This document shows, piece after piece, positions 1 to 64,000 of a stretch of 64,000 nucleotides of DNA; position 1 is the stretch's first letter, and every line of letters begins with the position of its first letter. A program made the position numbers and the translations under genes. Source of the DNA: a virus (taxonomy: Duplodnaviria > Caudoviricetes); the IMG/VR virus record IMGVR_UViG_3300031949_001696. One strand, given 5' to 3'. The notes below the pieces were generated by a model. The model made no database searches. It had not been told where the DNA came from and saw nothing but the letters and a program-made list of their open reading frames with translations.

Positions 1-215
1 GGATCGAGTAGGTCGGCGTGGAACCGCAGGGATGCTGCAACTGATTTTTCGACTGCCGTCGTGATGTCCTGCTGCACCTTGTCGTGTTGTGCGCAGCAGT
101 TTTCGGCGTCGACTTTGTTATCGAACGTGGCGATGTAGATCTTCTTGTTGTTCCGCTGTGCGTACGCCTGCCAAACGACACGATCCTTGCGCTTGTGGGG
201 CCTGACCATGCTCAT
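1..215 (-). CDS. 5' part of a gene with an AP2/arm-binding-like DNA-binding N-terminus (runs off the window start)
   Basis: ATG at 215 overlaps the upstream stop. MSMVRPHKRKDRVVWQAYAQRNNKKIYIATFDNKVDA resembles the AP2 pattern W-x-A...KKIYLG-x-F...EA. Not in the ORF track because it is truncated. Confidence 0.5.
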   Translation of the reverse strand, partial: MSMVRPHKRKDRVVWQAYAQRNNKKIYIATFDNKVDAENCCAQHDKVQQDITTAVEKSVAASLRFHADLLD

Positions 216-625
216 GGAGCCTTCCTCCGCGCGCGGCGCACCGCTGCGAGCATCTCGCCGCACTCCTGTGTCCATACTTTGTGGACGAGCACGTAGTGAT
301 CAGCTTTTTCGGGCCATACGAAGCCGTAACCGAAGAGATCGCGTGAGCCGAGTTCCTCGTCACAGATCCGGCAGTTCGCGCGACCCATGTAGCCCATCAG
401 CACGTCGCCACCCATCGGGTTCATGGTCGTGCGGAGCTGGAGCGCGCGTCCCAGCTCCTCGCGATCGGCCCACGGGACGTCATCGCGAATGTGGTCTTTG
501 GGTTGGCCGTGTTTGCGCCCGCCGGGAACGACATTGAGCAAGTCGAGCAGTGGCTGGAGCTCTCCGGCCAGCTCATCCCAGAACAGCAGCCTCTTGCCCG
601 CGTCGGGTCCAGGCGCGCGCATCAT
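212..625 (-). CDS. hypothetical protein, paralog of 51157-51510
   Basis: Shares MGxANCRIC...LG...DL...GFVWPEKAxHYV..H.VWT.EC with 51157-51510. Confidence 0.8.
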   Translation of the reverse strand: MMRAPGPDAGKRLLFWDELAGELQPLLDLLNVVPGGRKHGQPKDHIRDDVPWADREELGRALQLRTTMNPMGGDVLMGYMGRANCRICDEELGSRDLFGYGFVWPEKADHYVLVHKVWTQECGEMLAAVRRARRKAP

Positions 626-785
626 CGCTCTGCCTTTTCCTTCATCTGCTCGACGTGGATGACCCACGCGCGCTCGGCCTCCTCCAGGGCGAAGAGCGTG
701 TCACGCGGGTTCTTGGGATCGCGCGCGGCCACGAAGCCGTGTACGAAGCCCTCGTGTCGCAGGAGATCCTTCTGGTGGTGGTTGC

Positions 786-1031
786 TCACGGATGCACTGC
801 TTGGTGGGGCGTTTCGTTATTCGTGTCGATCTGCTCGAAGGGAACGCAGAACGCGATGTCGCCCTCGACCATCACGTCGGCGTGCCCGTATGGGGCCGAG
901 CACTCCTTGACCGTGAAGCGCCCAGAGCATTTGATGCGTAGGAGCGTGCCTCCTGGGCCATGGACCCAGATCGTGTTGCCGCCTTCGTCGAACTCTAGGC
1001 CGACGGCTTCGAACTGGACACGCGCACTCAC
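786..1031 (-). CDS. hypothetical protein
   Basis: Codon pattern and overlap coupling with neighbours. Confidence 0.6.
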   Translation of the reverse strand: MSARVQFEAVGLEFDEGGNTIWVHGPGGTLLRIKCSGRFTVKECSAPYGHADVMVEGDIAFCVPFEQIDTNNETPHQAVHP

Positions 1032-1666
1032 CGTTGCACCGCCCGTCGGATCGCAGCGAGATCAGCCTCCAGCATGCCGACACCGCGGAACGAGGCGAGC
1101 GTGAAGTTGTTCTCCTTGATCAGGTGCACGACCATCTGACCGTCGTGGTGGCAGCGCCAGATCGTGGCGAGCGCGATGCCGAAGCCGCGCATGAACGCCG
1201 CGTCTTCGGGGGAGAGCTTCTTTACCTTCGGTGCTTTCTTCGCGGTCTTCTTGTAACGTCTCCGCGGGTTCATCTCTCGCTCCAGGTCGACCAGGTGCGC
1301 GTCGATGCCGCGTGCCTTGATGTCCGCGATCGCCGCACCGATCGAGGACTTCGCGATCAGCCCATCGAAGTCTCTTCGGGTGGCGTTTAGGGAATCTTCG
1401 CGGCGGTACCGTCGCACGTGGACCTCGATTGCGCGCTGGGTATCGTCGAGCATCGCGTAGCAGTCGCTCGACCAGCCGCATGAGCAGCGCGCGCGATGGC
1501 CGCCATGCGGCATGTACGTACCGTGCTCGTGGTGGATCTCGATGACGTGCTCCGATCCCAGCGCCCCCACGCGCACGTCGCGGCGCACTGCGGTGCTCGG
1601 CGATTTGCAGGCGGGGCATTCGCTGTCGATCGGTGTGGTCATGGTTTCTCCTTCGTCATCCGTCAA
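1028..1666 (-). CDS. hypothetical protein with CxxC and CxCGW zinc-binding motifs
   Basis: ECPACK and RCSCGW motifs; coupled to neighbours; start may be 1642. Confidence 0.6.
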   Translation of the reverse strand: MTDDEGETMTTPIDSECPACKSPSTAVRRDVRVGALGSEHVIEIHHEHGTYMPHGGHRARCSCGWSSDCYAMLDDTQRAIEVHVRRYRREDSLNATRRDFDGLIAKSSIGAAIADIKARGIDAHLVDLEREMNPRRRYKKTAKKAPKVKKLSPEDAAFMRGFGIALATIWRCHHDGQMVVHLIKENNFTLASFRGVGMLEADLAAIRRAVQR

Positions 1667-2153
1667 CGCCTCTTCAACGCGAATCTAAGAAAGCGCGCGC
1701 CCTCTTCGTATCCCTTTTGGTATTCCGCTGAGGCTTCCGTGGGCGGCTCACCCATTTGCGCATCCATTTTCCCTCGTTCGAATCGAGCTTGCTGGATTCG
1801 CGCGGCCCGCGCTTCGTCGTCGGAGGGCTTTGCCTCTTGATTAGTCGGCACCTGGGGTTCTCTTTCCATTTTGTTCGACACTGGGAGGCCGACGATCGAT
1901 GTACTTGCGTCCGCAGCGCAGGCAGCGTCCGTAGCCGTTCCACAGCCGATCGCGCAGCTCGCAGTCGCACAGATCTTCCTTCGCAGGTTCGGTCACGTGC
2001 GCTCCTTGTGTTGGGCAGCTGCCTTGTCCAGCGCGTACGCCAACATCAGGCTCAGGTGCTTCGCGACGGCGAGCCAGCGCTCGTCAGTGATGAGCCGGTG
2101 CAGCTCCGCGAAGTGCGCGTGCCACGTCCAGCCGAGGAGGGTCGGCTCGGGCT

Positions 2154-2294
2154 TCATTGGTTGTTGGATGCTCGAGATTTCGGCCTTGAGCATCGTGTTC
2201 CACTGCTCGGGGATGACGTCAGTGATTGCTTGATCTTGTCGCGGACCTTATCGACGTACGTGGCGGGATCGAACTTGGTGACCTCAGTGCTCAT
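2154..2294 (-). pseudogene. frameshifted, truncated gene fragment
   Basis: MSTEVTKFDPATYVDKVRDKIKQSL continues sensibly only in another frame (DVIPEQWNTMLKAEISS) after ~2220. Confidence 0.5.
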
Positions 2295-3000
2295 GTTGCG
2301 CCTTTCGTTTCGGTGGACGGATCGGTCGTCTTCGTTGCTGCGCGCTCGGCGGCTTTCTGCCGTGACGGGTGATAGCCCGCGGCGTGGTAGCCGTAGTTCT
2401 TGCCTTTGCAGGCCCAGCCGACCCACGCGTAGCACGTGGGGCATTCGACGTCGGTGGCGTGAACGCGTGTGGTGCTCATGGGATCACGACCTCCCCGTTT
2501 TGAGCGGACGTGGACCTCGCGGGGTGAGCACGATGTGCGCGACGCTTGCTCCGTCGGCCCGCGAGACGGTTTCGGCCGCGTCCAGGACCTCGTTGAACCG
2601 ACGATCAGCCTCGGCGCGATTCTCGGGCTTCATCGCGCAGCCAAAGCAGATCAGCGCACCGTCCGGGCCGTACGGGCGCAGCTCGGTTTCCCCCCGCGGA
2701 TCCTCTCGGTCCGGCAGCTCGGGCCGACCGCACGCGCAGCAGACGCTCGCGGCACTCACTGCGGCAAGCTCCCACGGTAGCGCACGTCTGCGGGCGCGGT
2801 CGTGCCGTCCGCATAGAGGATCTCGGCCAGGACAGGGTAGTGCTCGGTGCCCGCGAAGCTCGGGATCTCGATCTTCGCGAGCGATCGGGCTTCGTCGAGC
2901 GTCACCGTCCGCGACCACACCACGCCGGTCTTGCCGCTGAGGAGCTGGAGCGTGATCGGGAACTTCTCCGGCGGGTAGTCATGTCGCGCGATCGGCTTGG

Positions 3001-3312
3001 TCACGGAACACTCCTCGCGGCGTCGACGGCGTCGAAGAGATGCGCATATAGACGCGCGCCGTCACGCATGTCGAAGCCGGGTCGGTTTGGATCGCGCACC
3101 GCGCACGCGGCTTCGTACACCGCGAGCAGCGCGGGGAGCGCGTTCACGGCGGCGACTGCCAGGCGGGAATCGTCGTCGAACTCCATGCCACCGATGTTGT
3201 ACTTCGTCGTCTGCGCGCCGATGCCTTTGCCCATGCGGTCGTCGTGAAGACACCACGGTGGCTGGTGCATCGCCTTCTCCAGTAGGGCGCGAAGTGCAGG
3301 GACGTCGATCAC
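3001..3312 (-). CDS. Ead/Ea22-like phage protein, paralog of 57009-57617
   Basis: PPW...LAVAAVNALP...AVYEAA...LFDAVDAAR shared with 57009-57617. Confidence 0.6.
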   Translation of the reverse strand: MIDVPALRALLEKAMHQPPWCLHDDRMGKGIGAQTTKYNIGGMEFDDDSRLAVAAVNALPALLAVYEAACAVRDPNRPGFDMRDGARLYAHLFDAVDAARSVP

Positions 3313-4202
3313 GAGGTCTTCCCTCGCATCATGGTGACGACGTCGACCGGGCGCACTGCGGCGCGTGGCGCTTCGCCGTCTTCCTTGAAGTAATGGTAGG
3401 GCAGCGCGTTCCATTCCATTTCCCGCACAGTGATGAGCTTGGTGTCGTCGTCACGCATGGCGTAAGCGCACATGACATCGCTGACGGGTCTGCCGTCCAC
3501 GACGTCGCGAAAGAACGCCGTGGGCATGAGGTAGCGTTTTTCCGTCGCGCGATCAGTCCAGACTTTCATGCGCAGTCGCAGAGTGCTCATCGCAACATCT
3601 CTCGCTGGTATCGTGCTCGGCTTCGTGAGGTCGCCGATGGCCACCGAGCGCATGTCATGGGGGCCTTCGTGCCCGACCGGCAGTGAGCACAACATCCAGC
3701 CGTCGGCGCTGGTGATCGGACACGCCGCGTTGGTCACGACTTTGGTCCTTCCGGCGGCATCACTCGTCGATGTGCGGTCGATCCGGGCGCGTCCGCGGGG
3801 CAGCTACAACACATGACGTAGCCAGGCGCTGGATTCGGGTGTCTCTTGCCGTAGCCGCATACCCACGTGTCGTTGCTCGCCGCGCTGTCGGTCACGAGTC
3901 GGCCTCCTTGCGATCTGCGGCTCTCAGCACGGGAGCATCGTCGCTCGCCGGTCTGACGTCGATGGAGGTACGCTCCTCCAGCTTCATCTCCAGATCTTCG
4001 ACGACCTTGCGGAGTCGCTCGCAGTCGCGCCGAGTTGCGGCGCTACAAGCGATCACGAGAGGGGCACGCGTCTGCGGAGGCAGTCCCTGATCGGTCATGT
4101 TGGCGATCACGCGCGCGTACGACACGAGGTCGACCTGCCGCTCGGCGAGGTCCTTCTGGGCTGCGGTGAGCTTCCGTTTGTGTTGGCGGTGGCGCGCGCT
4201 CA

Positions 4203-4922
4203 TCAAGTGCTCCTCGTCGAATCGCGGGACTCCGCTACTTGCGCTTCCTGCGCTTCCTCAGCATCGATTTCGGCCCAGATCGACACGAACTGCGCGCTCG
4301 TCAGGTACCGCTTTGCTTTCTGAACGAAGAGTTCTTCGCGCGCTCTCGACGACGAGTGCCGATGCTGCTGACCCTTCAGCTCTGTGAGCTTCCGCTGCAA
4401 CGCGAGGGATGTCGTTTGAAGATCGGCTAGGTGCTGCTCGCGTTGGCGATACACGGCCGGCGGCTCGTAGATGCCGCGAGTCGCCGCGTTTGCCTTCGCC
4501 CGGCCGATCTGCACCTTGAGTTGGCGGATCTCGTTGTCGACTTTGTCTTTCATCAGGACGATTTCTGATCGTTGCTTCTCGAAGGTGGTAGCGGTGGGTG
4601 CGAGGTGGATCTGGACGTGCCGCGCAGCTTCCGCCTCGCGTTGCTGCTGTGCACGCTGGGACTTGTCGTCGTTCTCGCTTTGCTTGACGTTGCGCCACCA
4701 GCGGTTGCGGTCGCCCTCCCGGGTGTCGTGCGGCACGTCGTGCTCGTCGAGCGCGTCGCTCACGGCGTCGAGGTCGAACGGCGTCGCCAGCGTGGGCAGC
4801 CACAGCGTTTGGCCATCCGGCACGTAGATCAAAATCGTCTGCGGGTGTTCGGGGAACAGCGTGATCCGCAGGGGGCGAGGATCGAACGCACACGGCATCG
4901 GCGGCTTCGTCGGCATCGTCAT
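4203..4922 (-). CDS. hypothetical coiled-coil protein
   Basis: ATG at 4922 overlaps the upstream stop; Q/E/K/R-rich C-terminal half. Confidence 0.65.
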   Translation of the reverse strand: MTMPTKPPMPCAFDPRPLRITLFPEHPQTILIYVPDGQTLWLPTLATPFDLDAVSDALDEHDVPHDTREGDRNRWWRNVKQSENDDKSQRAQQQREAEAARHVQIHLAPTATTFEKQRSEIVLMKDKVDNEIRQLKVQIGRAKANAATRGIYEPPAVYRQREQHLADLQTTSLALQRKLTELKGQQHRHSSSRAREELFVQKAKRYLTSAQFVSIWAEIDAEEAQEAQVAESRDSTRST

Positions 4923-5395
4923 CGGGGCGACCTCGTGCGCTTCGTCGGCATCAGCTTCGAGCGCTTGGGCAGCGGGATCTTGTTCGCCTTCATCATCGCG
5001 GTGAACGTCGGGAACAGCTTCGGACCTTTCTTGTCCTCGACTTCCTCGAACGTGACGGCTCCCCGCATGACGAGGATGCGCACGCCGATCGCGTCGAACC
5101 CCATCACGCGGATCCAGCCTTGACAGGGAATGTTGGACAGGACAGGTAATTTCGGCGAAGCTTGTGAAGCGATGGTTGCTCGATCGCTTGATGATCGAGA
5201 CATGTTCGTGCCGTCGTCTTTGCTGCTGCGCTGAATGTTGGCGAAGTGGCAAAGCATGCTGTGCAGACCGTCGTCCTGGCAGTTTTGCCAGACATCGACG
5301 AAATGCTGCGGGTCCCAGTAGTCGCGCGGAGCGTCGATGCGCCACGGGCAGTTCGAGCACGGCCGCCGGAGCTTCGTGGTAGCTGCCTCGGTCAC
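4919..5395 (-). CDS. DUF6283-like Cys/His phage protein with an atypical internal segment
   Basis: PCxxCPWR...MLCH...CQGW motif; a Ser-rich 35-aa stretch lies between CH and CQGW. Confidence 0.55.
   Translation of the reverse strand: MTEAATTKLRRPCSNCPWRIDAPRDYWDPQHFVDVWQNCQDDGLHSMLCHFANIQRSSKDDGTNMSRSSSDRATIASQASPKLPVLSNIPCQGWIRVMGFDAIGVRILVMRGAVTFEEVEDKKGPKLFPTFTAMMKANKIPLPKRSKLMPTKRTRSPR
5166..5201 (+). repeat. solitary CRISPR-repeat homologue, same family as the 61.6-64 kb array
   Basis: TTGCTCGATCGCTTGATGATCGAGAC matches the array repeat 3' end TTGCTCGGTTGGTTGACGACCGAGAC at 21/26 positions; the 8-bp stem and 5-nt loop are kept by compensatory changes. Confidence 0.75.
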
Positions 5396-5754
5396 GTGCC
5401 GACCTTCCGCAGCTCGGCGATGCGCGCGCTGCCCCGCTGGTCGCGACGCCCGATGAAGTCGCCTTGCAGCTTGATCGCAGTCTCCGCAATACCGCACGCC
5501 TCGTCGCGTGCCGCGGTCATCGCAGCGAGACTCTTCAGCAGTAGGTCGATCTTCGTCCAGATGTCGCCGTGCCCCGGCACCATCTGGTGGAGGTCGTCGT
5601 AGCCGCGCTGTTTCGCGTCGATGTCGCCGAGCAAAACGAGGACTGTCATCGGGCCCGCGGCGTCGGCGAAGACTTCACGCGCGTTCGAGTTGACCAGTGC
5701 CGCCGCGGCGAGCGTGCGGAGCTTCTCGATCAATGCTCGTTGTTCCGCTGTCAT
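5392..5754 (-). CDS. hypothetical protein sharing a C-terminal module with 5751-6017
   Basis: MTAARDEAC.IA...RIAELRKVG in both. Confidence 0.65.
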   Translation of the reverse strand: MTAEQRALIEKLRTLAAAALVNSNAREVFADAAGPMTVLVLLGDIDAKQRGYDDLHQMVPGHGDIWTKIDLLLKSLAAMTAARDEACGIAETAIKLQGDFIGRRDQRGSARIAELRKVGT

Positions 5755-6017
5755 GGAGCCCCCACCTTTCGCAGCTCGGCGATGCGCTTGAGCTTGTGTC
5801 CTGCGACGGCGGAGTGCGATTCGGCGATCGCTGCGATGGCACATGCCTCGTCACGCGCCGCGGTCATCTCGTCGAGCGCGCGGCGCAGCTCTCGCTCCAG
5901 CAGGTAGTTGTGGTCGAGGCTCGCGAAGTTGTGGCGACCGCCGTGGCCGGCGTAATAACGGCACTTGCGGTCGCTGATCTGGTCGTACGTCGAGCACATC
6001 TCGGGTTCAGTGGTCAC
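5751..6017 (-). CDS. hypothetical protein (C...C...GH.G.H N-terminus plus the shared C-terminal module)
   Basis: See 5392-5754. Confidence 0.6.
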   Translation of the reverse strand: MTTEPEMCSTYDQISDRKCRYYAGHGGRHNFASLDHNYLLERELRRALDEMTAARDEACAIAAIAESHSAVAGHKLKRIAELRKVGAP

Positions 6018-6045
6018 AAAAACCTCCGATCGGTAAGATGTGGGC

Positions 6046-6666
6046 ATGGGCAAGACCGCCGCGCAGCTCGACCGGGAGATCGCAAAAGCGTTGGCGCGGC
6101 CGAAGTCTCTTCGGGTGGCGTTCAGGAAGTCGCGCAGGGGGCACGCCACCGTAGCGTGGGAACCGCGGGACGAGTCTGGTGACGCGTGGGATGTCGCGAG
6201 AGACGCGATCCTGGAGCACGACACCAAGCGCGCAGCCGACATCTGGCGGAGTATCCGTAAGGAGTACGGCGTGGAAGCAACTCGTCCGCCTTCGTTCGAT
6301 AAGGCGTTGGCCGAAGTACCGGCCGACGTACGGCAGAGATTCGAAGACGCGATCGGTGTGCAAACGGCAGCCAAGCACGTCAAAGCGATTCTCGACGCGA
6401 TTTACCGGTCGAAAGATCCTGATGCGCTGCTCACCGCGGTGAGTGCGGCCACCAAGCACGTGACCGCGATGAAGCGCGTCGCGCGAAAATTTGGAGGCGT
6501 CAGCCGACTGCTTGATTCGAGCGGCGCGTTCGATCCCCAGATGAGCGATCTGAACAACATGCTTGTCGGCGCCAAGGAAATGGTGCGGAGGATCAAGATT
6601 CAGCGCAAGACGGGGCGCTTGCCGAAGGCGACGAGCAGGACCGCTTGGCGTACGCGCGGAATGTGA
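6046..6666 (+). CDS. basic hypothetical protein, counter-oriented, apparently leaderless
   Basis: 207-codon ORF MGKTAAQLDREIAKAL...; TAAGAT at 6034-6039, then 6 nt, then ATG. Confidence 0.75.
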   Translation: MGKTAAQLDREIAKALARPKSLRVAFRKSRRGHATVAWEPRDESGDAWDVARDAILEHDTKRAADIWRSIRKEYGVEATRPPSFDKALAEVPADVRQRFEDAIGVQTAAKHVKAILDAIYRSKDPDALLTAVSAATKHVTAMKRVARKFGGVSRLLDSSGAFDPQMSDLNNMLVGAKEMVRRIKIQRKTGRLPKATSRTAWRTRGM

Positions 6667-6677
6667 GAGCTTCCAAG

Positions 6678-7265
6678 TCACGGATAGTGTCCCTCGATCC
6701 GTACTAGTTCGTTCGCGAAGATCCGCTCGCCGATGCAGTTGTCGCAGACAGGACTCGCGGGGGCCGTCGGCGCATTCTTCACGAAGCGGTACAAGGCGCA
6801 GTCGTAGCCGGACGATCCGTAGTGGCCCTTCACGAGCCACTCGCCGACCGTGATCGACGGTGGCTGTTCGTGCCGGTTCGGGGCGCTCTCAAATTTCTTG
6901 GCCGTCTCTTCGGTGGCTTGAAAGACCGAAGCAGTGCAGTCGGCACCCTGCGTTCGCGTCTCGAAGGGAACGACGGCACGGTGCCGATTGCCGCACCAGG
7001 CGCAGACGACGGGGCGCGGAAACTGCGGTGATACGCCGATGAGGTCGTCGACGGCGACGCCAATGCGCTCGCGTACGGCCTCGAACGTCGCGTCGACCGC
7101 GTTCCACTTGAGTGGTAGTGGAGGCACGCTGTCGCGCAGGTCGCCGGCAATCTCGCTCGCCCCGTCGCCCAGGCGCTGGATCTCCTCCAGCAGCCGATGG
7201 TGCTGGGGCTCCGTCAGTTTCGATCCGTCGATCATCACGAGGTAGATCATGATCAATCCGATCAT
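6678..7265 (-). CDS. hypothetical Cys-rich protein
   Basis: CAWC and VCDNC motifs; coupled to neighbours. Confidence 0.6.
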   Translation of the reverse strand: MIGLIMIYLVMIDGSKLTEPQHHRLLEEIQRLGDGASEIAGDLRDSVPPLPLKWNAVDATFEAVRERIGVAVDDLIGVSPQFPRPVVCAWCGNRHRAVVPFETRTQGADCTASVFQATEETAKKFESAPNRHEQPPSITVGEWLVKGHYGSSGYDCALYRFVKNAPTAPASPVCDNCIGERIFANELVRIEGHYP

Positions 7266-7615
7266 GCGTCGCGGAGGGTGCGCACGAGCGCGGTCGCGAA
7301 CTCCGTGGCGAGAAGCGAGTCGTCGGCGAGCACGAGTTTGCCGAGCGCGTCGCCGCATAGCTTCTCGATCCGCTCTCGGATGGGACCGGGGGCTCGAACT
7401 TGTTCGAACACGACCTCGCGCGCGACCTGCTGGATCGCGTCGTTGAACGCGTCTCGTAGCGGACTCGTGCGCGCGCCGTAGACGCCGTGACCCGAGGGTT
7501 TCTCTTCCAAGAGCGCGGCGATCGCGTTCTTGATCAGGTGCTCGCGCTTCTGGTCATCGAGCGACTTGTACATCGCCTCGATCACGCGCGCCTTCATCGC
7601 GGTGTCGTCCGTCAT
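7262..7615 (-). CDS. hypothetical protein
   Basis: Codon pattern and coupling. Confidence 0.6.
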   Translation of the reverse strand: MTDDTAMKARVIEAMYKSLDDQKREHLIKNAIAALLEEKPSGHGVYGARTSPLRDAFNDAIQQVAREVVFEQVRAPGPIRERIEKLCGDALGKLVLADDSLLATEFATALVRTLRDA

Positions 7616-8470
7616 TACAGAAGCCTCCGAAATTCCGTCGTGGTGTGAATCCAGCCATCGTCGCATTCGATTTGCACGACGATCGCGTTGTCATCGCCGA
7701 TTCCGACGGTGACGATCCGGCCGATCAGCTTCCGTGTTTCATCGTGCAACGGCCCCTGTTTCTCGACGAGGGCCTCGACGCGTGTACCGATCAGCTCGGT
7801 GACGACGCGCGGACGGATGGAGCTGTCTCCAGTCATACAGCCTCCTTGCTGCCGCGCGCGATCGCGTCGGCCGTGGGCATGGGATCGTCGAGGTAGCCGC
7901 TGCCGTCGCAGCGCGCAGGGGGCAACGACGCGATCCACCAGCAGCTCTTCTCCTTCGAGTCTGGCGGCTCGAAGCAAAAGCCGATCCGGCGGTGCTCGTA
8001 CACCAGCTCGACGTGGGTCTCCCCGCCGGCCAGCGTGGTGTAGTGGAGATCGAGGAGCTTCACGGGGCTTCCTCGGTGTTGAAGTCGAAGCCGTGCAGCT
8101 CCGCGAACGTGTCGTCCCAGAAGCGCGTGACGATCTCGTGGGGCGTCGGTTTCTTGGTCGTCGTTAACCGGATGCCGATACCGTCGAGCTCGCGCACGGT
8201 GTGCCAGCGCCAGAACGTGCGCGTCGCACCGTCACGAGAGACACGGAATTTGACGGCCCAGGTGCCGGGATTGTTCGTGGCTTGGTCCTGGTGGGGTTTC
8301 ACGTCGACGATTCTGACGGTGATCATGTGCTCTTCTCCTTGTGCGCTCCGCGCTCCTCTCGTTTTCAGTTGGCGCATCGGTGCTCCTGACATTCTTGGGA
8401 ACTCGCGAAGTACGTCAGGCACGTCTGGCAGACGCGACGGTCGAAGCATGCTTATCCGGTTGTCGCCCAA

Positions 8471-8833
8471 TCACTTGGCAACCCGTCGATCAATAACCAC
8501 GGTCGCACCGCAGCGCTGGCAGTAGTTCTCACCGTCGCGCACGCTGCATTCGCCGCGCTCCTGGCACGACTTGAAGCACCCGCGCACGAAACCTTGAAGG
8601 AAGGCCAGATTGAGGCGCTTGCACTCCTCCTTGTATCTAGCCCAGTCGCTCTGCATTCCTACGACGGAGCCCCACGGTCCACGGAGCACAGGGCCGCCGG
8701 TCATCGACTGCTCACCGACGTCGAATGCCTCCATCTCGATTCGCTCAAGCTTTCGTTCGCCGCTCAAGACGAGATGCACGACTGCGTTGTTCCATTCGGT
8801 CTCGATGGCCGGCTTTGTGTGGTTATCGGTCAC
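8471..8833 (-). CDS. cassette passenger, hypothetical protein
   Basis: Preceded by CCCAAGGAG; lower-GC codons; stop abuts the terminal repeat. Confidence 0.65.
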   Translation of the reverse strand: MTDNHTKPAIETEWNNAVVHLVLSGERKLERIEMEAFDVGEQSMTGGPVLRGPWGSVVGMQSDWARYKEECKRLNLAFLQGFVRGCFKSCQERGECSVRDGENYCQRCGATVVIDRRVAK

Positions 8834-8863
8834 TTGCAAGCTCCTTGGGTTAGCACCCATCGA

Positions 8864-9142
8864 TCATCCCGCCTTACGCCGAAGCGTGAACATTCCAGGT
8901 CTAAGCTGGACGCGCTCATAGTCCGGGTTCAGGTATTCGACGCACTTTCCACCACACGGCGGGCATAGCGTTTCATCCTGCGTTCTGGAGCTGATAAGCT
9001 CATCCGCGTTATACGAGGACGAGTGGAGGTAGCCGAATGTCTGCGTGCAGCAGCAACATTTTCCAACGCCTCCCCACCAGCCACCTTGCGGAAGTTGACT
9101 CCCGCCAATTGGGCGACCATGCGGGCATGCCACGACGCTCAT
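8864..9142 (-). CDS. cassette passenger, Cys-rich hypothetical protein
   Basis: CCCAAGGAG-N4-ATG; lower-GC codons. Confidence 0.6.
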   Translation of the reverse strand: MSVVACPHGRPIGGSQLPQGGWWGGVGKCCCCTQTFGYLHSSSYNADELISSRTQDETLCPPCGGKCVEYLNPDYERVQLRPGMFTLRRKAG

Positions 9143-9235
9143 GCGGCTCCTTGGGTGATAAGCGGAAGTTGACTCCCGCCAATTGGGCGACCATGCGGGC
9201 ATGCCACGACGCTCATGCGGCTCCTTGGGTGATAA
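9088..9235. repeat. exact 74-bp tandem duplication
   Basis: 9088-9161 equals 9162-9235; covers the inner TIR, RBS and gene start. Confidence 0.95.
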
Positions 9236-10187
9236 CCGGACAGTCATGGGTCGAAGCACGCGTTGCACATCTCGAAGCGCACCGTGCCGTCCTTGCGACG
9301 CACGGTCGCGCGTTCGTCAGCCAGGGCGCAGGTGCATGCACATTGTACAGCGCTCATCGATCTGCCCCCTTCGCGGCGGATCGCCGCGCTGCCAGCTCGT
9401 CGAGCGCGCGGACGAGCAGCGTGTCTCCCGACGTCGTCGAAGCGCGCAGGAAGCCCAGCTCGGCGTCGGTGAGGAAGTCCGTGTCCGCGTTCTCCGCGTG
9501 CTGGACGATCTCGGTCTTCGCGGCCTCCGATCGCGGCCGACCGTCGTCCTGGTCGCAGCCGTGCCCGCGATGCCAGTCGCGCCAGTGGCCCACGAACCAT
9601 GGCGGCGTGTGATCGGTGCAGGACTTGGACACCGCTTGCTCCGTCATCGAGGCCCCCTGACCACGGCTGCGTGGTTTTTCGCTCGGTCTTCTCGTCGTCG
9701 TCGCAAAAGATACGCGACGGCGCCGCTGCACGGCGGGCAGAGGTGTCCGTGAGCGTGCTGCGTGCAACCTGACTCCTCGGGCTCGGGCTCCGGTGCCCCG
9801 AAGATCATGCCAACAACAGAGGTGATGGCGGAGTCGACGACATGTTGTCGGCTCATCGAAAATTCGACGACATAGAGGATCTCCGCGCCACAGCCGACGC
9901 ACGCACTCTTGAGGCGTATTCCGTCCGCGTTCACGTCGACGACGGGTTGATCAGTTTTCAGCATGTAGTTGTCATCCGCGGTGCGCCAATTCCTTAGCAG
10001 CCATTACGTGCGTTCAGGATCTCGGCGCAGCGGGCGCGCGCGGCAAGCTTGGACTGCGATGGAAACGGCCGCCGTTCCCCGAGCGCGACTGAGATCGTGG
10101 TGTAGGTCAAGCCATGAAACGGCAACACTCGCCGCAGCTCGCGAAGCTGATCATCGGTGATCGTATCGGCGGTCAGCATTTGATCTC

Positions 10188-10214
10188 CCTTGGGTGTCAA
10201 TCGGATAAGCACGG
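10188..10214 (-). repeat. orphan cassette left end
   Basis: AACTAA|CCGTGCTTATCCGATTGACACCCAAGG, 25/27 identical to 46848-46874 and preceded by the same AACTAA. Confidence 0.8.
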
Positions 10215-10712
10215 TTAGTTCCAATCACTCACCAGCCACCAGGCTGCCTTCTGACCGTCGATCTTGATGCCCATCGCCGCGCAGAATTCGGCGAGCGCGG
10301 CGTCCCAGGCGGGATCCACGGCCAGCGAAGTGATTTCGTTCATGTCGCCACGGTTGCTGATCGTTCGCGACGCCTGCACGGCCACGTAGGGCATTGGGCA
10401 CTCGCCCGAGCAGTGCGTGTCGATCAAGCACGTGGCCTCTTCGACGAGCTTTCGCTTCGCGGCCCAGTACGCCGTGTGCTGGTCGATGATCGCCTGCTCT
10501 TCGGCGCTGTAGTCCGTTGGCGTCGAGTTCCAGCCGTTCTCGCGCGTGGGCGTGACCATGCGTGCGGGGAACGGTGTGCTCGGCGGCAGGCAGCCCTTCG
10601 TGCGGGCGTAGCGTCCCTCCCAGTCGTCGTCGGGATCGATCTCCCACGGGCGTGAGGTCTCGTCGTCCCAGCAGTAGCCGTAGAACAGGATCGCGTCGGT
10701 TGACGTACCCAT
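10215..10712 (-). CDS. hypothetical protein
   Basis: Strong codon pattern; RBS GGAGG before ATG 10712. Confidence 0.75.
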   Translation of the reverse strand: MGTSTDAILFYGYCWDDETSRPWEIDPDDDWEGRYARTKGCLPPSTPFPARMVTPTRENGWNSTPTDYSAEEQAIIDQHTAYWAAKRKLVEEATCLIDTHCSGECPMPYVAVQASRTISNRGDMNEITSLAVDPAWDAALAEFCAAMGIKIDGQKAAWWLVSDWN

Positions 10713-10913
10713 ATCAGAGCCTCCTCTCCACCAGATCAACACCGAGCTCGTCCGGGACCTCGCCTGCCATGTGCAGCGGCTCCTCGAACTCGATCGCGCG
10801 CATACTGCACCGACCGATAGGTTCGCCGAACGCCTTGATCGTGTAGAGCTGTCCACGCCAGCTCACGCGATCGCCGACGTGGATCGCGCGGCCCGCACTG
10901 TCCTGCGGATCTC

Positions 10914-11522
10914 TCATAGTGATGATTTCTCCGTCGATGGTGGCGGCGGCACTTCGACGATGCGGAAGCCGCCCTCTTCGGGGATCAGCGCCACGTACTT
11001 TTTCGCCTTGATGATGGGGCCCGGATCGGTGCCGAGCGGCAAGAACGGCCATGTCTGCGTCACGACCAGCGCCGACCGCGCGAAACCATCGACATCGAGG
11101 TCGCACCATCCGACGACCTCGGGTCGGCATGGTCCGCCGAGAGCAGAGATCAGGGCGCGGTATGCGTCGTGGCCCTGTCCTTCCATCCCATAGCAGACGA
11201 CACCGTGGCAGCCGTGCGCCGCGGTCTTGAGCGGTAGCTTGGGCCGCTTCTCCTCGACGAAGCCGCGCCCCGCGGCGACGGCCTGCCGGGCCCAGGCCGG
11301 TTCGATCGGCTCCGTCGAGACGACTGAACCCGGACCGAACAGCCGTTTCATCAGCTCTGCCGTCGCGCCGTTTGGTGGATCGCCCTCGGGCCACAGCAGC
11401 ATCTCGACGAATGCGACGATCTGGAGCCCGAAGGCTTCGCGTGTTCCCGCCCACATCTCTGGCCGTGCCTCCATGCGCGCGAAGCGGTCGAAGATGTGAC
11501 GCTCTGTTTGATCGTGGGTCAC
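10914..11522 (-). CDS. hypothetical protein
   Basis: Codon pattern and coupling. Confidence 0.65.
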   Translation of the reverse strand: MTHDQTERHIFDRFARMEARPEMWAGTREAFGLQIVAFVEMLLWPEGDPPNGATAELMKRLFGPGSVVSTEPIEPAWARQAVAAGRGFVEEKRPKLPLKTAAHGCHGVVCYGMEGQGHDAYRALISALGGPCRPEVVGWCDLDVDGFARSALVVTQTWPFLPLGTDPGPIIKAKKYVALIPEEGGFRIVEVPPPPSTEKSSL

Positions 11523-11787
11523 GGAATCTTCACCCCTGGTAGTTCCGCGAGACGTTCGCGCAAGGCGCGCAGGCGCGGGGCGTCCTCGGTCTCGTACTCA
11601 CGCCCCTTGTCGGAGGTGATCTCGTCGAGCGCGTCGATGATGGCGCAGACGTCGGCGGCCGACAGCGCGGCGCGATAGACAAAAGGTCGGGATTCGCGCC
11701 GGGTCCTGCCCTCCTCGTCCGGTCTCCACGACGGGCGTGTCTGGGCTTGTGCCCAGCCGCGGTCGTCGATCATGACGTCGGGTGACT

Positions 11788-12117
11788 TCAAGGGATGCTC
11801 AGATCCGGCAAGGTTTCGATCGAATTCATCCAGGCTCGAACCGCGTCCTCTTCGATGAAGACGAGGGCCGCGATCTGTGTGCTGGGGACGCGCATTTGCG
11901 CCGTGGCGCGGTACGTCTCTTGGTCGCCGCTCGCGATCACGGCGCATACGTCGAGATCGACAAACGTCGGCGAGTGTGCGTTTTCGCGGAAGTCGTACAC
12001 GTGTGCGTAGGCCGCGGCGATCTTCCGCGACGCGCACGGTGTCGTCGGAAGTCGCGGCAAGGGCTCCGGGCCGTTGAACGTGACGAGAGCCAGGCGGCTG
12101 TTCTTGTCGCCGATCAT
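11788..12117 (-). CDS. hypothetical protein
   Basis: Codon pattern and coupling. Confidence 0.6.
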   Translation of the reverse strand: MIGDKNSRLALVTFNGPEPLPRLPTTPCASRKIAAAYAHVYDFRENAHSPTFVDLDVCAVIASGDQETYRATAQMRVPSTQIAALVFIEEDAVRAWMNSIETLPDLSIP

Positions 12118-16895: not shown

Positions 16896-16931
16896 ATCGT
16901 GCTCGCTTTTCGCGGGTACGTGGATTGAAAC
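16896..16931 (+). repeat. solitary type I-C-like CRISPR repeat
   Basis: ATCGTGCTCGCTTTTCGCGGGTACGTGGATTGAAAC: 9-bp hairpin followed by the I-C tail TGGATTGAAAC; intergenic. Confidence 0.8.
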
Positions 16932-61579: not shown

Positions 61580-64000
61580 ATTTCGGTCGTTAGCAGGCAT
61601 GTTCACGTTTTTTGCCGACGTGTCGATCCCAGCCCACGTCTCCGTCTCGGCCGTCAACCAAACCGAGCAAGTAGTCTCGGCCGTCAACCAACCGAGCAAG
61701 CACGATCACACGCCGACGAAACGCAACAACGGCGACGTGAGGCAGTCTCGGCCGTCAACCGACCGAGCAAGTACGATCACGTAGGCTGTCGGCGTGTCGG
61801 CGTGCAGCTCGGCGAGCTGCAACCGTCTCGGTCGTCAACCAACCGAGCAAGCACGATCACCTCAACCACGATCGCGTCAGCCGCGACGCGACGACGCGAC
61901 GCTAGTCTCGGTCGGTCGTCAACCAACCGAGCAAGTATCACCCGCCAAGGATCTGGCTGACCTCGCGCTCTGTTGGGAGTCTCGGTCGTCAACCAACCGA
62001 GCAAGCACGATCACTTTTCACTTTGGTCCTTGATCAATCACGAAGCTCTTTGTCAGAGTCTCGGTCGTCAACCAACCGAGCAAGCACGATCACACCAGGC
62101 TCCAGGCTCGGTGATCAACCTCAGCGAGCGCTCCACGTCTCGGTTGTCAACCAACCGAGCAAGTACGATCACAAGGGGCATGCGCCGCTCTCGCTCGAGC
62201 TGCTCAAGGTCTCGGTCGTCAACCAACCGAGCAAGTACGATCACAAGGGGCATGCGCCGCTCTCGCTCGAGCTGCTCAAGGTCTCGGTCGTCAACCAACC
62301 GAGCAAGTACGATCACCGTCTACCCTCGGTGCGTTGCTGCGCGACTTGCCGGTCTCGGTCGTCAACCAACCGAGCAAGTACGATCACATGACGTAACTGT
62401 GGACCCAACAACCTAGTCCGGGTCTCGGCCGTCAACCAACCGAGCAAGTACGATCACATCGCTCGTCGGGTGCTAACCTCCTAGCAAAGGGGAGTCTCGG
62501 TCGTCAACCAACCGAGCAAGTACGATCACACGATCCTCAAGGGCGACAACCGCGCCATGACGAAGTCTCGGTCGTCAACCAACCGAGCAAGTACGATCAC
62601 AGACCGAGGCTTCGTTGCAATTGCGGCGTGACCTCCGGTCTCGGTCGTCAAGTACGATCACCCATGTACCGCCCGCACGAGCACGGTGACGGCGAGGAGT
62701 TTTTCCACGTCTCGGTCGTCAACCAACCGAGCAAGTACGATCACGTTCCGTACGCGCTCTTGCGGTCAGCGGTGTCACTGTCTCGGTCGTCAACCAACCG
62801 AGCAAGTACGATCACGAGACCACTGCGTTTCCGCTCGTCGAGGATGCTTTCGTCTCGGTTGTCAACCAACCGAGCAAGTACGATCACTTTTGGTTTCCTC
62901 GTCACAGACTGCGTAGACACTGTCTCGGTCGTCAACCAACCGAGCAAGTACGATCACGCGCAGCGGTGGGGCGGGAAGCTGCCGTACGACGAGTCTCGGT
63001 CGTCAACCAACCGAGCAAGTACGATTACATGGGGCATGCGCCGCTCACAGCTGCGCGCGCTCGTCGAAGCGAAGAACTACGCCCTGTCTCGGTCGTCAAC
63101 CAACCGAGCAAGTACGATCACACAGGAGTCGGCCCAGTGTAGACCCTGGCGGATGGTCGTCTCGGTCGTCAACCAACCGAGCAAGTACGATCACACGCTC
63201 GCGAGCGCGTCAATCGCCGCCGAATGCGTGCAGGGTCTCGGTCGTCAACCAACCGAGCAAGTACGATCACGTGCCGCCTGATACGGGGCCCGCTCGTCGC
63301 GCTTGTCTCGGTCGTCAACCAACCGAGCAAGTACGATCACCCAAGTCCGCCACCTCCAACTGCCGCACGAGGTCCACGTCTCGGTCGTCAACCAACCGAG
63401 CAAGTACGATCACCAGCATCGTGGGCGTCGACGGCGCGACCGCTCACTGGTCTCGGTCGTCAACCAACCGAGCAAGTACGATCACGCTGGACTTGCGCGA
63501 TCCCGCCGTTCGTGTCCGCGAGTCTCGGTCGTCAACCAACCGAGCAAGTACGATCACCTGGCGGGCAGAGACACCTCTGCCTTGGAGGTCTGGTCTCGGT
63601 CGTCAACCAACCGAGCAAGTACGATCACCGCCGATGCCAAGCGCGCGAGCGACAGAACTCGTCGTGTCTCAGTCGTCAACCAACCGAGCAAGTACGATCA
63701 CCGCGCTCTGCCTGCTGCTGCGCAAGCGAATGACTGTGTCTCGGTCGTCAACCAACCGAGCAAGTACGATCACCTGGCGTCGGTCGGTGCCGCCGCCGAG
63801 GAACCGATCGAGTCTCGGTCGTCAACCAACCGAGCAAGTACGATCACTGCGCGAATACCAAACGCGCATGCACGCCCTGTGTGTGTCTCGGTCGTCAACC
63901 AACCGAGCAAGTACGATCACGCGTCGGTGCCTCGGGCGACGATCCGCGGCTCACCTTGTCTCGGTCGTCAACCAACCGAGCAAGTACGATCACCCGGGTG
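61580..64000 (-). CRISPR. CRISPR array, repeat GTGATCGTACTTGCTCGGTTGGTTGACGACCGAGAC (36 nt), continuing past the window end
   Basis: 33 clear repeat copies from 61644 to 63993 plus a very degenerate one at 61580-61606; spacers mostly 34-47 nt; degenerate copies cluster at low coordinates (trailer end). Confidence 0.98.

Follow-up and report, generated by a model that had tools for sequence, protein, structure and literature searches.

A solitary copy of a Cas12m-type CRISPR repeat, followed by a spacer-like segment, lies antisense within a protein-coding gene of the DUF6283 family in a soil phage. The copy matches a recognizable CRISPR repeat family, sits in a recent insertion that preserves the reading frame, and is followed by 44 nt homologous to the conserved core of the same gene family that hosts it. 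The best explanation for this arrangement, which is advanced tentatively and from the sequence, is that a Cas12m repeat-spacer unit was copied in frame into the phage's DUF6283 gene, where it would constitute a putative guide against rival alleles. The stretch of DNA that was analyzed, referred to here as the window, is 64,000 nt long. Its relevant features are as follows.

4919-5395, minus strand: DUF6283 gene hosting the insertion (Pfam PF19800, 1.5e-13; 209 homologues, about 60-76% identical)
5162-5245, no strand assigned: in-frame insertion in the MLCH-PCQGW loop, from protein alignment and relatives' contigs (~84 nt, net +78 nt)
5164-5201, plus strand: solitary CRISPR repeat of the Cas12m (type V-M) family, from the covariance models R1 and R2, sister arrays, and fold
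5202-5245, plus strand: spacer-like tail, a diverged antisense copy of the DUF6283 core F-V-D-I-W-R-N-C-Q-D-D-G-L-N
5261-5302, minus strand: FVDVWQNCQDDGLH, the conserved core of the gene itself and the tail's cognate site, 15 nt away (25/42 identity)
61674-64000, minus strand: Cas12m-type CRISPR array of 31 repeats, running off the window end, with its trailer at the low-coordinate end

The Lone Repeat and Its Array

The structured core of the lone repeat, at 5176-5201(+), consists of TTG, CTCGATCG, CTTGA, TGATCGAG, and AC, which form an 8-bp stem and a 5-nt loop. This hairpin is present in the minimum-free-energy fold, and all eight stem pairs are standard pairs. The repeat of the window's own array is 36 nt long; worn copies at the low-coordinate end indicate that its crRNA sense is the minus strand, on which it reads TTG, CTCGGTTG, GTTGA, CGACCGAG, AC. 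The two cores are identical at 21/26 positions, with 8/8 stem pairs kept. From the array to the lone copy, three stem pairs change: G-C to A-U, U-G to C-G, and G-C to G-U. A sequence-only reading of this stretch had described the same TTG, stem, loop, and AC with every pair preserved, and the sequence is as it claimed. The array is labeled Cas12m-type from near-identical repeats in two metagenome loci, L048 and L030, its own effector being outside the window. Its spacers measure 34-44 nt, so the size of the insertion fits one array unit.

The match at 5176-5201 to the array repeat is beyond chance. The runner-up ungapped match to the array core in the remaining 61.6 kb, both strands, is 18/26. 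Decoy patterns of two kinds, composition-matched (shuffled) and hairpin-preserving, gave 0.001-0.002 matches with five or fewer mismatches per window; the equally good hits from shuffled sequence that the sequence-only reading had named as the danger to its claim did not materialize. Two covariance models were used for the scan that the same reading had proposed. R1 was built from the window's own array repeats and scores 5176-5201(+) at 22.4 bits (E=5e-4), with a runner-up of 9.9 bits. R2 is a family model built from 85 metagenome repeats with no window sequence included; it scores the same segment at 24.8 bits (E=2.7e-6) over model positions 11-36, against a runner-up of 13.3 bits in 61.6 kb, which fits the unstructured 5' third of the model and is put down to chance. 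With both models the lone repeat is the sole match above noise in 1-61640, some 56 kb from the array and with no other repeat within 100 bp, and its description as a solitary copy holds. One loop base is the only departure of its scaffold from the family-conserved positions of R2.

The repeat-like part extends over 38 nt (5164-5201). Over its 5' third (5164-5175) it is divergent: few positions match, and the alignment needs an indel of 2-3 nt. The lone copy at 5164-5201 does not qualify as a full-length 36-nt repeat that includes this third. Two weak R2 matches elsewhere, at 1964-1996(-) and 2265-2282(+), were judged to be chance; they cover the unstructured 5' third only, and one lies on a gene start. 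A search for the exact repeat in IMG/VR gave no match, nor did a comparison of window positions 1-12000 with GenBank phages.

Repeat Family and Cas12m Association

A degenerate core pattern was scanned once over the JGI metagenomes (241 million records) and returned 50 loci. About 12 of these are real arrays or array ends of the window's repeat family, and the rest are single matches in conserved coding DNA. Identical 23-mers that fit the core pattern occur once each in L016, L017, L018, L022, L026, L046, and others; the codon-like variation upstream of them indicates a conserved protein-coding gene and not CRISPR. Such single 23-mer matches in coding DNA are a caution for pattern scans.

The closest relatives of the lone repeat lie outside the window. 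Three arrays (L061, L040, and L023) carry the stem CTCGATCG / CGATCGAG and differ from the lone copy at 2/26 positions, and a lone copy at L030:2739-2766 differs at 1/26, while the window's own array differs at 5/26. Among 61 distinct family repeats, pair 5, which is A-U in the lone copy, is GC in 35, AU in 15, and GU in 11; the lone copy's states at the other two changed pairs also occur among the 61. The sequence-only reading had offered selection on RNA structure or origin from a sister array as explanations for the covariation. The second of these is supported by the stems of L061, L040, and L023, and because the stem states are standing variants of the family, compensatory change in place need not be invoked. 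Judged by sequence comparison, the covariation of the lone repeat is inherited, and the repeat is a true family member from a sister branch, an A-U stem variant.

The family can be linked to an effector. In L048, a 694-aa open reading frame beside the array matches PDB entry 23vw at 9e-60 and Cas12m2 (8hhl) at 1e-17. In L030, a 715-aa protein beside the array is 67% identical to the L048 protein. Because Cas12m homologues adjoin arrays of this family, the repeat family is assigned to type V-M. Effectors of the phage clade are 694-715 aa long in relatives and have a D-E-D RuvC triad.

A Recent In-Frame Insertion in a DUF6283 Gene

The gene that carries the lone repeat antisense, as the sequence-only reading had recognized, belongs to DUF6283 by its Pfam match. 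Its likely start is the GTG at 5395, and the open frame continues to 5497. A pattern search for more DUF6283 loci gave a single distant one in IMG/VR, species genomes yielded none, and an AlphaFold2 model of the protein (mean pLDDT 50) was unusable.

Between the invariant MLCH and PCQGW motifs, 108/120 homologues have a stretch of 13 residues; the window's gene has 38. This site is the only length-variable loop of the gene, and other indels occur there too. Two contigs from relatives bridge the site, both exactly 78 nt shorter than the window. One joins 5135 to 5246 via 32 nt that correspond to the K-S-N-V-L-P-K-N-E-H-R linker, which is the usual form. The other joins 5119 to 5268 via 70 nt, with 1/46 and 5/62 nt differences in the flanks. 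The flanks of the insertion-free close relatives, whose contigs come from other soil and sediment runs, are 92-98% identical to those of the window. Because the insertion is missing both in homologues and in close relatives, it is recent and lineage-specific. The best parse keeps a native linker, A-S-P-K-L-P-V-L-S-N, and places the insertion at ~5162-5245 (84 nt), with a left boundary uncertain by about 12 nt.

A direct repeat of 9 bp, GAATGTTGG, at 5128-5136 and 5233-5241 (+), which encodes (S/A)-N-I on the gene strand, was considered as the boundary of a 105-bp unit. This candidate was rejected, since the relatives differ by 78 nt and not 105, and excision of 105 bp would leave a 4-residue linker that is present in no homologue.

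The Spacer-Like Tail

The segment that follows the hairpin is 44 nt long (5202-5245), longer than the ~31-40 nt that the sequence-only reading had allotted to a possible spacer. In the gene frame it reads FANIQRSSKDDGTN(M), and 11/14 of its residues are found in family alleles. The tail aligns with the antisense core of six foreign alleles at 26-31/42 positions, ungapped, in register, and in frame. The best identities are with L064 (31/42), L001 (29/42), and L002 (28/42), compared with 25/42 for the window's own core. In a full-length ungapped test, which is the decisive one, 0/20,000 random 42-mers from the window reached 31/42 with any allele, offset, or strand; a local-alignment test of the tail against random window 44-mers gave 47/3000, which is moderately significant. 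Taken together, the identity of the repeat and the homology of the tail indicate that the insertion comprises one repeat and one anti-DUF6283 spacer.

The tail is diverged from every allele seen. At the positions of the invariant Cys and of the near-invariant Trp and Asp, one or two base changes per codon have altered the residue, and because the Cys and Trp codons are lost, the tail matches no functional allele seen. Exact searches with its first 20-22 nt found no match in genome collections, viral collections, or the window. The tail with its left flank, compared with the window, the retrieved loci, and array spacers, gave short chance matches only, and none of the window's own array spacers match DUF6283. 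The search of the tail that the sequence-only reading had suggested therefore returned no exact target and no match elsewhere in the window, but it did return homology to foreign DUF6283 cores. On the 5' side of the cognate site, 6/6 alleles examined read ...CATG(N).

These results bear on whether the repeat could be a look-alike produced by chance or by coding constraint. Palindromes of the CGATCG type are common in GC-rich coding DNA, single 23-mer matches turned up in unrelated conserved genes among the 241 million metagenome records, and very many windows were read in the scan, all of which would favor such a coincidence. Against it stand the E-value of the independent family model (2.7e-6) together with the decoy expectation (0.001-0.002), the status of the segment as an insertion that homologues and close relatives lack, and the second, independent signal in the adjoining 44 nt. 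The chance reading is already close to refuted, and we regard it as exceedingly improbable.

Proposed Origin and Guide Function

In the origin that we tentatively favor, the unit would come from a Cas12m array holding a spacer against the DUF6283 genes of rival phages, the family being conserved among these phages; such an array is the simplest source of a repeat joined to a gene-derived 44-mer. The donor may be the phage's second array, which lies outside the window, or an array of another element, and not the array 56 kb away. The unit may have entered the homologous gene by recombination aided by the similarity between spacer and gene, and a loop tolerant of length changes would have received the insertion. 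The source of its 44-nt tail would be a foreign DUF6283 allele, whose conserved core the tail copies in antisense. At the right junction, only a GTG is common to the start of the next repeat and the His codon.

On the plus strand, the repeat scaffold precedes the guide-like segment, as it does in a type V crRNA gene. In the crRNA of Cas12m, the repeat scaffold takes up 36 nt and the guide after it 20 nt, with a 17-bp heteroduplex, and in the Cas12m2 crRNA the 5' seven nucleotides are disordered while the stem is read via its backbone (PMC10442227). Because the 5' end is disordered, the lost 5' part of the lone repeat may not matter for binding, which fits the retention of its 3' 26 nt. Cas12m needs no tracrRNA, and its own pre-crRNA is trimmed by the protein (PMC11013384). 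If the plus strand is transcribed, these published properties predict a functional guide: Cas12m would bind the hairpin and trim away what lies upstream in the RNA, leaving the tail's first 17-20 nt to bind rival alleles of DUF6283. Mismatches and a one-codon offset would spare the core of the phage itself. Characterized Cas12m proteins prefer a T/C-rich PAM (PMC11013384). The CATG(N) at the known alleles differs from this preference, which may not be the PAM of this clade.

The unit runs antisense to the leftward operon around it. A consensus scan for sigma-70-type promoters and terminators on both strands of 4600-5900 found none. A perfect TTGACA occurs at 5120-5125 (+), 39 nt upstream of the lone repeat, and arises from rare TGT CAA codons for a conserved Cys-Gln. 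The only -10-like hexamer after it is GGTAAT at a 19-nt spacing, which fails the consensus scan. Of the stand-alone guide suggested by the sequence-only reading, then, the layout of a repeat followed by a spacer-length segment from a phage gene family stands, and a plus-strand promoter and an exact target were not found in these searches. Because no promoter, exact target, or suitable PAM was found, the guide function is one that we infer, as we do the donor array, transcription, Cas12m binding, and targeting.

The same evidence makes it quite possible that the unit is an inert scar, an array-derived by-product of recombination between array and gene that has survived in frame in a tolerant loop and gives rise to no consequential RNA. 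The region at 4600-5900 with neither promoter nor terminator, the position antisense in an operon, the failure to find a target, and the unsuitable PAM context in known alleles are all as expected for a scar, and the MLCH-PCQGW loop accepts other indels too. Moreover, because the insertion is recent, its intact hairpin may only mean that there has been too little time for decay, and intactness needs no selection. Two observations argue in the other direction: the scaffold is perfect at the family-conserved positions bar one loop base, and an independent insertion of another CRISPR type in other alleles (see below) shares its orientation and stands in the same relation to the core, which is easier to explain with selection.

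An RNA decoy of the Racr kind would also use the hairpin. In that case the transcribed lone repeat would sequester a rival's or host's Cas12m of the A-U-stem type, and the tail would be irrelevant. A sister branch is closer to the lone repeat than the phage's own array is, lone phage repeats are known to act as RNA anti-CRISPRs (PMC10651486), and this phage also has an intergenic type I-C-like lone repeat at 16898-16931. However, a decoy does not need a tail derived from the hosting gene family, no promoter was found at 4600-5900, and the lone repeats of this kind in the literature lie between genes and have promoters of their own (PMC10651486). We consider a decoy unlikely.

Equally unlikely is a role in cis, in which Cas12m hairpins embedded in coding loops would regulate at the RNA level and the tail would stem from unequal recombination of DUF6283 alleles. 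The precedent is the cas12m gene of L030, which has two repeat-like hairpins in lineage-specific in-frame insertions. In the window, by contrast, the hairpin is antisense to the messenger and hence absent from the gene's RNA, its G-U pair becomes an A-C mismatch on the messenger strand, and there is only one copy in 61.6 kb. The L030 hairpins lie in sense orientation at 1831-1857 and 2739-2766 (+) of the gene at 1087-3234, each within its own such insertion; after the one at 2739-2766 comes a tandem copy of the adjoining codons (LPEIDG twice). These hairpins could serve self-regulation of the cas12m messenger.

Type I-C-Like Repeats in the Same Loop

A different in-frame insertion of 75-81 nt occupies the same loop in five DUF6283 homologues (P0001, P0003, P0004, P0008, and P0018). 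The alleles with this I-C-like insertion are located as follows.

L001:1778-2233, DUF6283 allele with I-C-like insertion
L002:2352-2846, DUF6283 allele with I-C-like insertion
L003:1852-2322, DUF6283 allele with I-C-like insertion
L064:1078-1530, DUF6283 allele with I-C-like insertion
L065:868-1356, DUF6283 allele with I-C-like insertion

Read antisense, the insertion consists of ~38 nt, then a hairpin, then the tail (G/C)GG(A/G)TTGAAAC. The stems differ among the alleles and the tail is kept. This repeat tail runs straight into the antisense of K-S and M-L-C-H, and the orientation is that of the Cas12m-type insertion. The motif GTGGATTGAAAC at a spacing of 66-70 nt marks arrays in more than 120 species. 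A covariance model of 58 repeats from real arrays scores the L002 insertion at 19.1 bits (E=0.018), with weaker matches in L003 and L065. A 20-mer of the insertion, searched in genome and viral collections, gave unrelated coding matches only and no array, and the Rfam CRISPR-DR families matched neither the Cas12m-type nor the I-C-like insertion. An apparent 42-residue insertion in a further homologue, P0002 (L063), was rejected as an independent type because part of the core recurs, in another frame, within its 688-nt contig; this contig carries the same kind of I-C-like tail.

In alleles that lack the insertion, a TTC formed by the K-S-N codons lies immediately 5' of the point at which the repeat tail ends in the others, and TTC is the type I-C PAM (bioRxiv 10.1101/2022.06.15.496202, PMC8406640). 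The I-C-like insertion is therefore suggestive of a remnant of the kind that would be expected had a phage protospacer recombined with a spacer of a host array, an event that would remove the PAM.

The top match of the I-C-like model (21.2 bits, E=0.005) is in the window itself, at 16898-16931 (+). This intergenic lone repeat has the type I-C form, a hairpin and then TGGATTGAAAC, with 3 nt between its end and an ATG. It bears no relation to the window's own array, and Rfam gives it a weak tail match only (CRISPR-DR9, E=4.8). By its sequence and position, it is a candidate RNA anti-CRISPR.

Relation to Known Systems

The lone repeat resembles the type V-M repeats and crRNAs of MmCas12m2 and GoCas12m, with their 36-nt repeat and a 3' scaffold that ends just before the guide (PMC10442227, PMC11013384); the known systems have no tracrRNA, and the window's repeat family adjoins Cas12m homologues. 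Unlike a type V-M array, the copy is single, 56 kb from the array, from another branch of the family, and inside a protein-coding gene. The effectors of the phage clade (694-715 aa in relatives, with the D-E-D RuvC triad) also differ from characterized Cas12m proteins in being larger.

Virus-borne mini-CRISPR arrays, described by Faure 2019 and Medvedeva 2019, are reportedly used in conflicts between related viruses. The window's unit is similar to the mini-arrays, as reviewed in PMC11656645, in being a minimal viral unit with a putative spacer that would derive from a gene of related viruses. It differs in comprising one repeat instead of repeat-spacer-repeat, in being intragenic, in frame, and antisense, and in that it would use the phage's own kind of effector and not the host's. 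It also sits in a homologue of its own putative target, and no exact or near-exact target was found.

Solitary repeat units, or Racrs, are likewise lone phage repeats that mimic array repeats in sequence and fold (PMC10651486). Their survey masked open reading frames and deemed intragenic matches probable false positives (PMC10651486), so cases such as the window's intragenic unit were excluded by design. Unlike a Racr, the window's repeat carries a meaningful spacer and has no promoter that we could find; it is not intergenic and does not lie just downstream of a promoter, as a Racr does. CreR and crlRNA also combine a stand-alone repeat with a guide-like segment (bioRxiv 10.1101/2023.03.03.530964). 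They are located within or beside cas loci and pair partially with cas or defense promoters, whereas the window's unit is far from the array (56 kb), and its tail matches a phage gene family of unknown structure and nothing elsewhere in the window, beyond which the cas promoter lies.

The general process behind such a transfer has a possible precedent. Recombination between phage and CRISPR via spacer-protospacer identity, yielding phage-array hybrids that move CRISPR loci, is said to have been described in Varble 2019. A process of this kind would explain array DNA beside spacer-matched sequence. The window differs in having an in-frame unit fixed inside a phage gene, and the I-C-like insertion is the better fit.

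Lone repeats and mini-arrays on viruses are thus known already, and the gene-derived spacer is the special feature of the window's unit. In the literature searched, we found no in-frame intragenic repeat-spacer unit whose spacer stems from the family of the gene that hosts it. It is conceivable, though rather doubtful, that the Cas12m-type and I-C-like insertions reflect one general process, in which repeat-spacer units leave arrays and enter homologues of spacer-matched genes, yielding in one case a loop-borne guide against rival alleles and in the other an I-C repeat that replaces the PAM. If this is true, the DUF6283 loop is a recurrent site of spacer-directed insertion, and surveys restricted to intergenic regions have missed a CRISPR-driven form of gene evolution. 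If it is general, DNA is exchanged between arrays and their targets, guide-RNA genes or self-marking repeats can lie hidden in protein loops, and phage Cas12m systems serve in conflicts between related phages. With ~100 nt and one Cas12m, the unit is a small test object for the question of whether a type V repeat on its own can give rise to a functional guide.

Other Cas12m-Type Repeats

In L019, a 9-kb soil contig, a full and a partial Cas12m-type repeat abut each other at 3724-3790 (-), with no spacer and away from any array. The window's own array is irregular at 61861-61978, 62601-62708, 62173-62280, and 63029-63085. Broken repeats lie inside two long "spacers". The neighboring spacers at 62173-62208 and 62245-62280 are identical, and a third spacer has the same 3' end. 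These irregularities suggest duplication rather than acquisition as the mode by which this array has grown.
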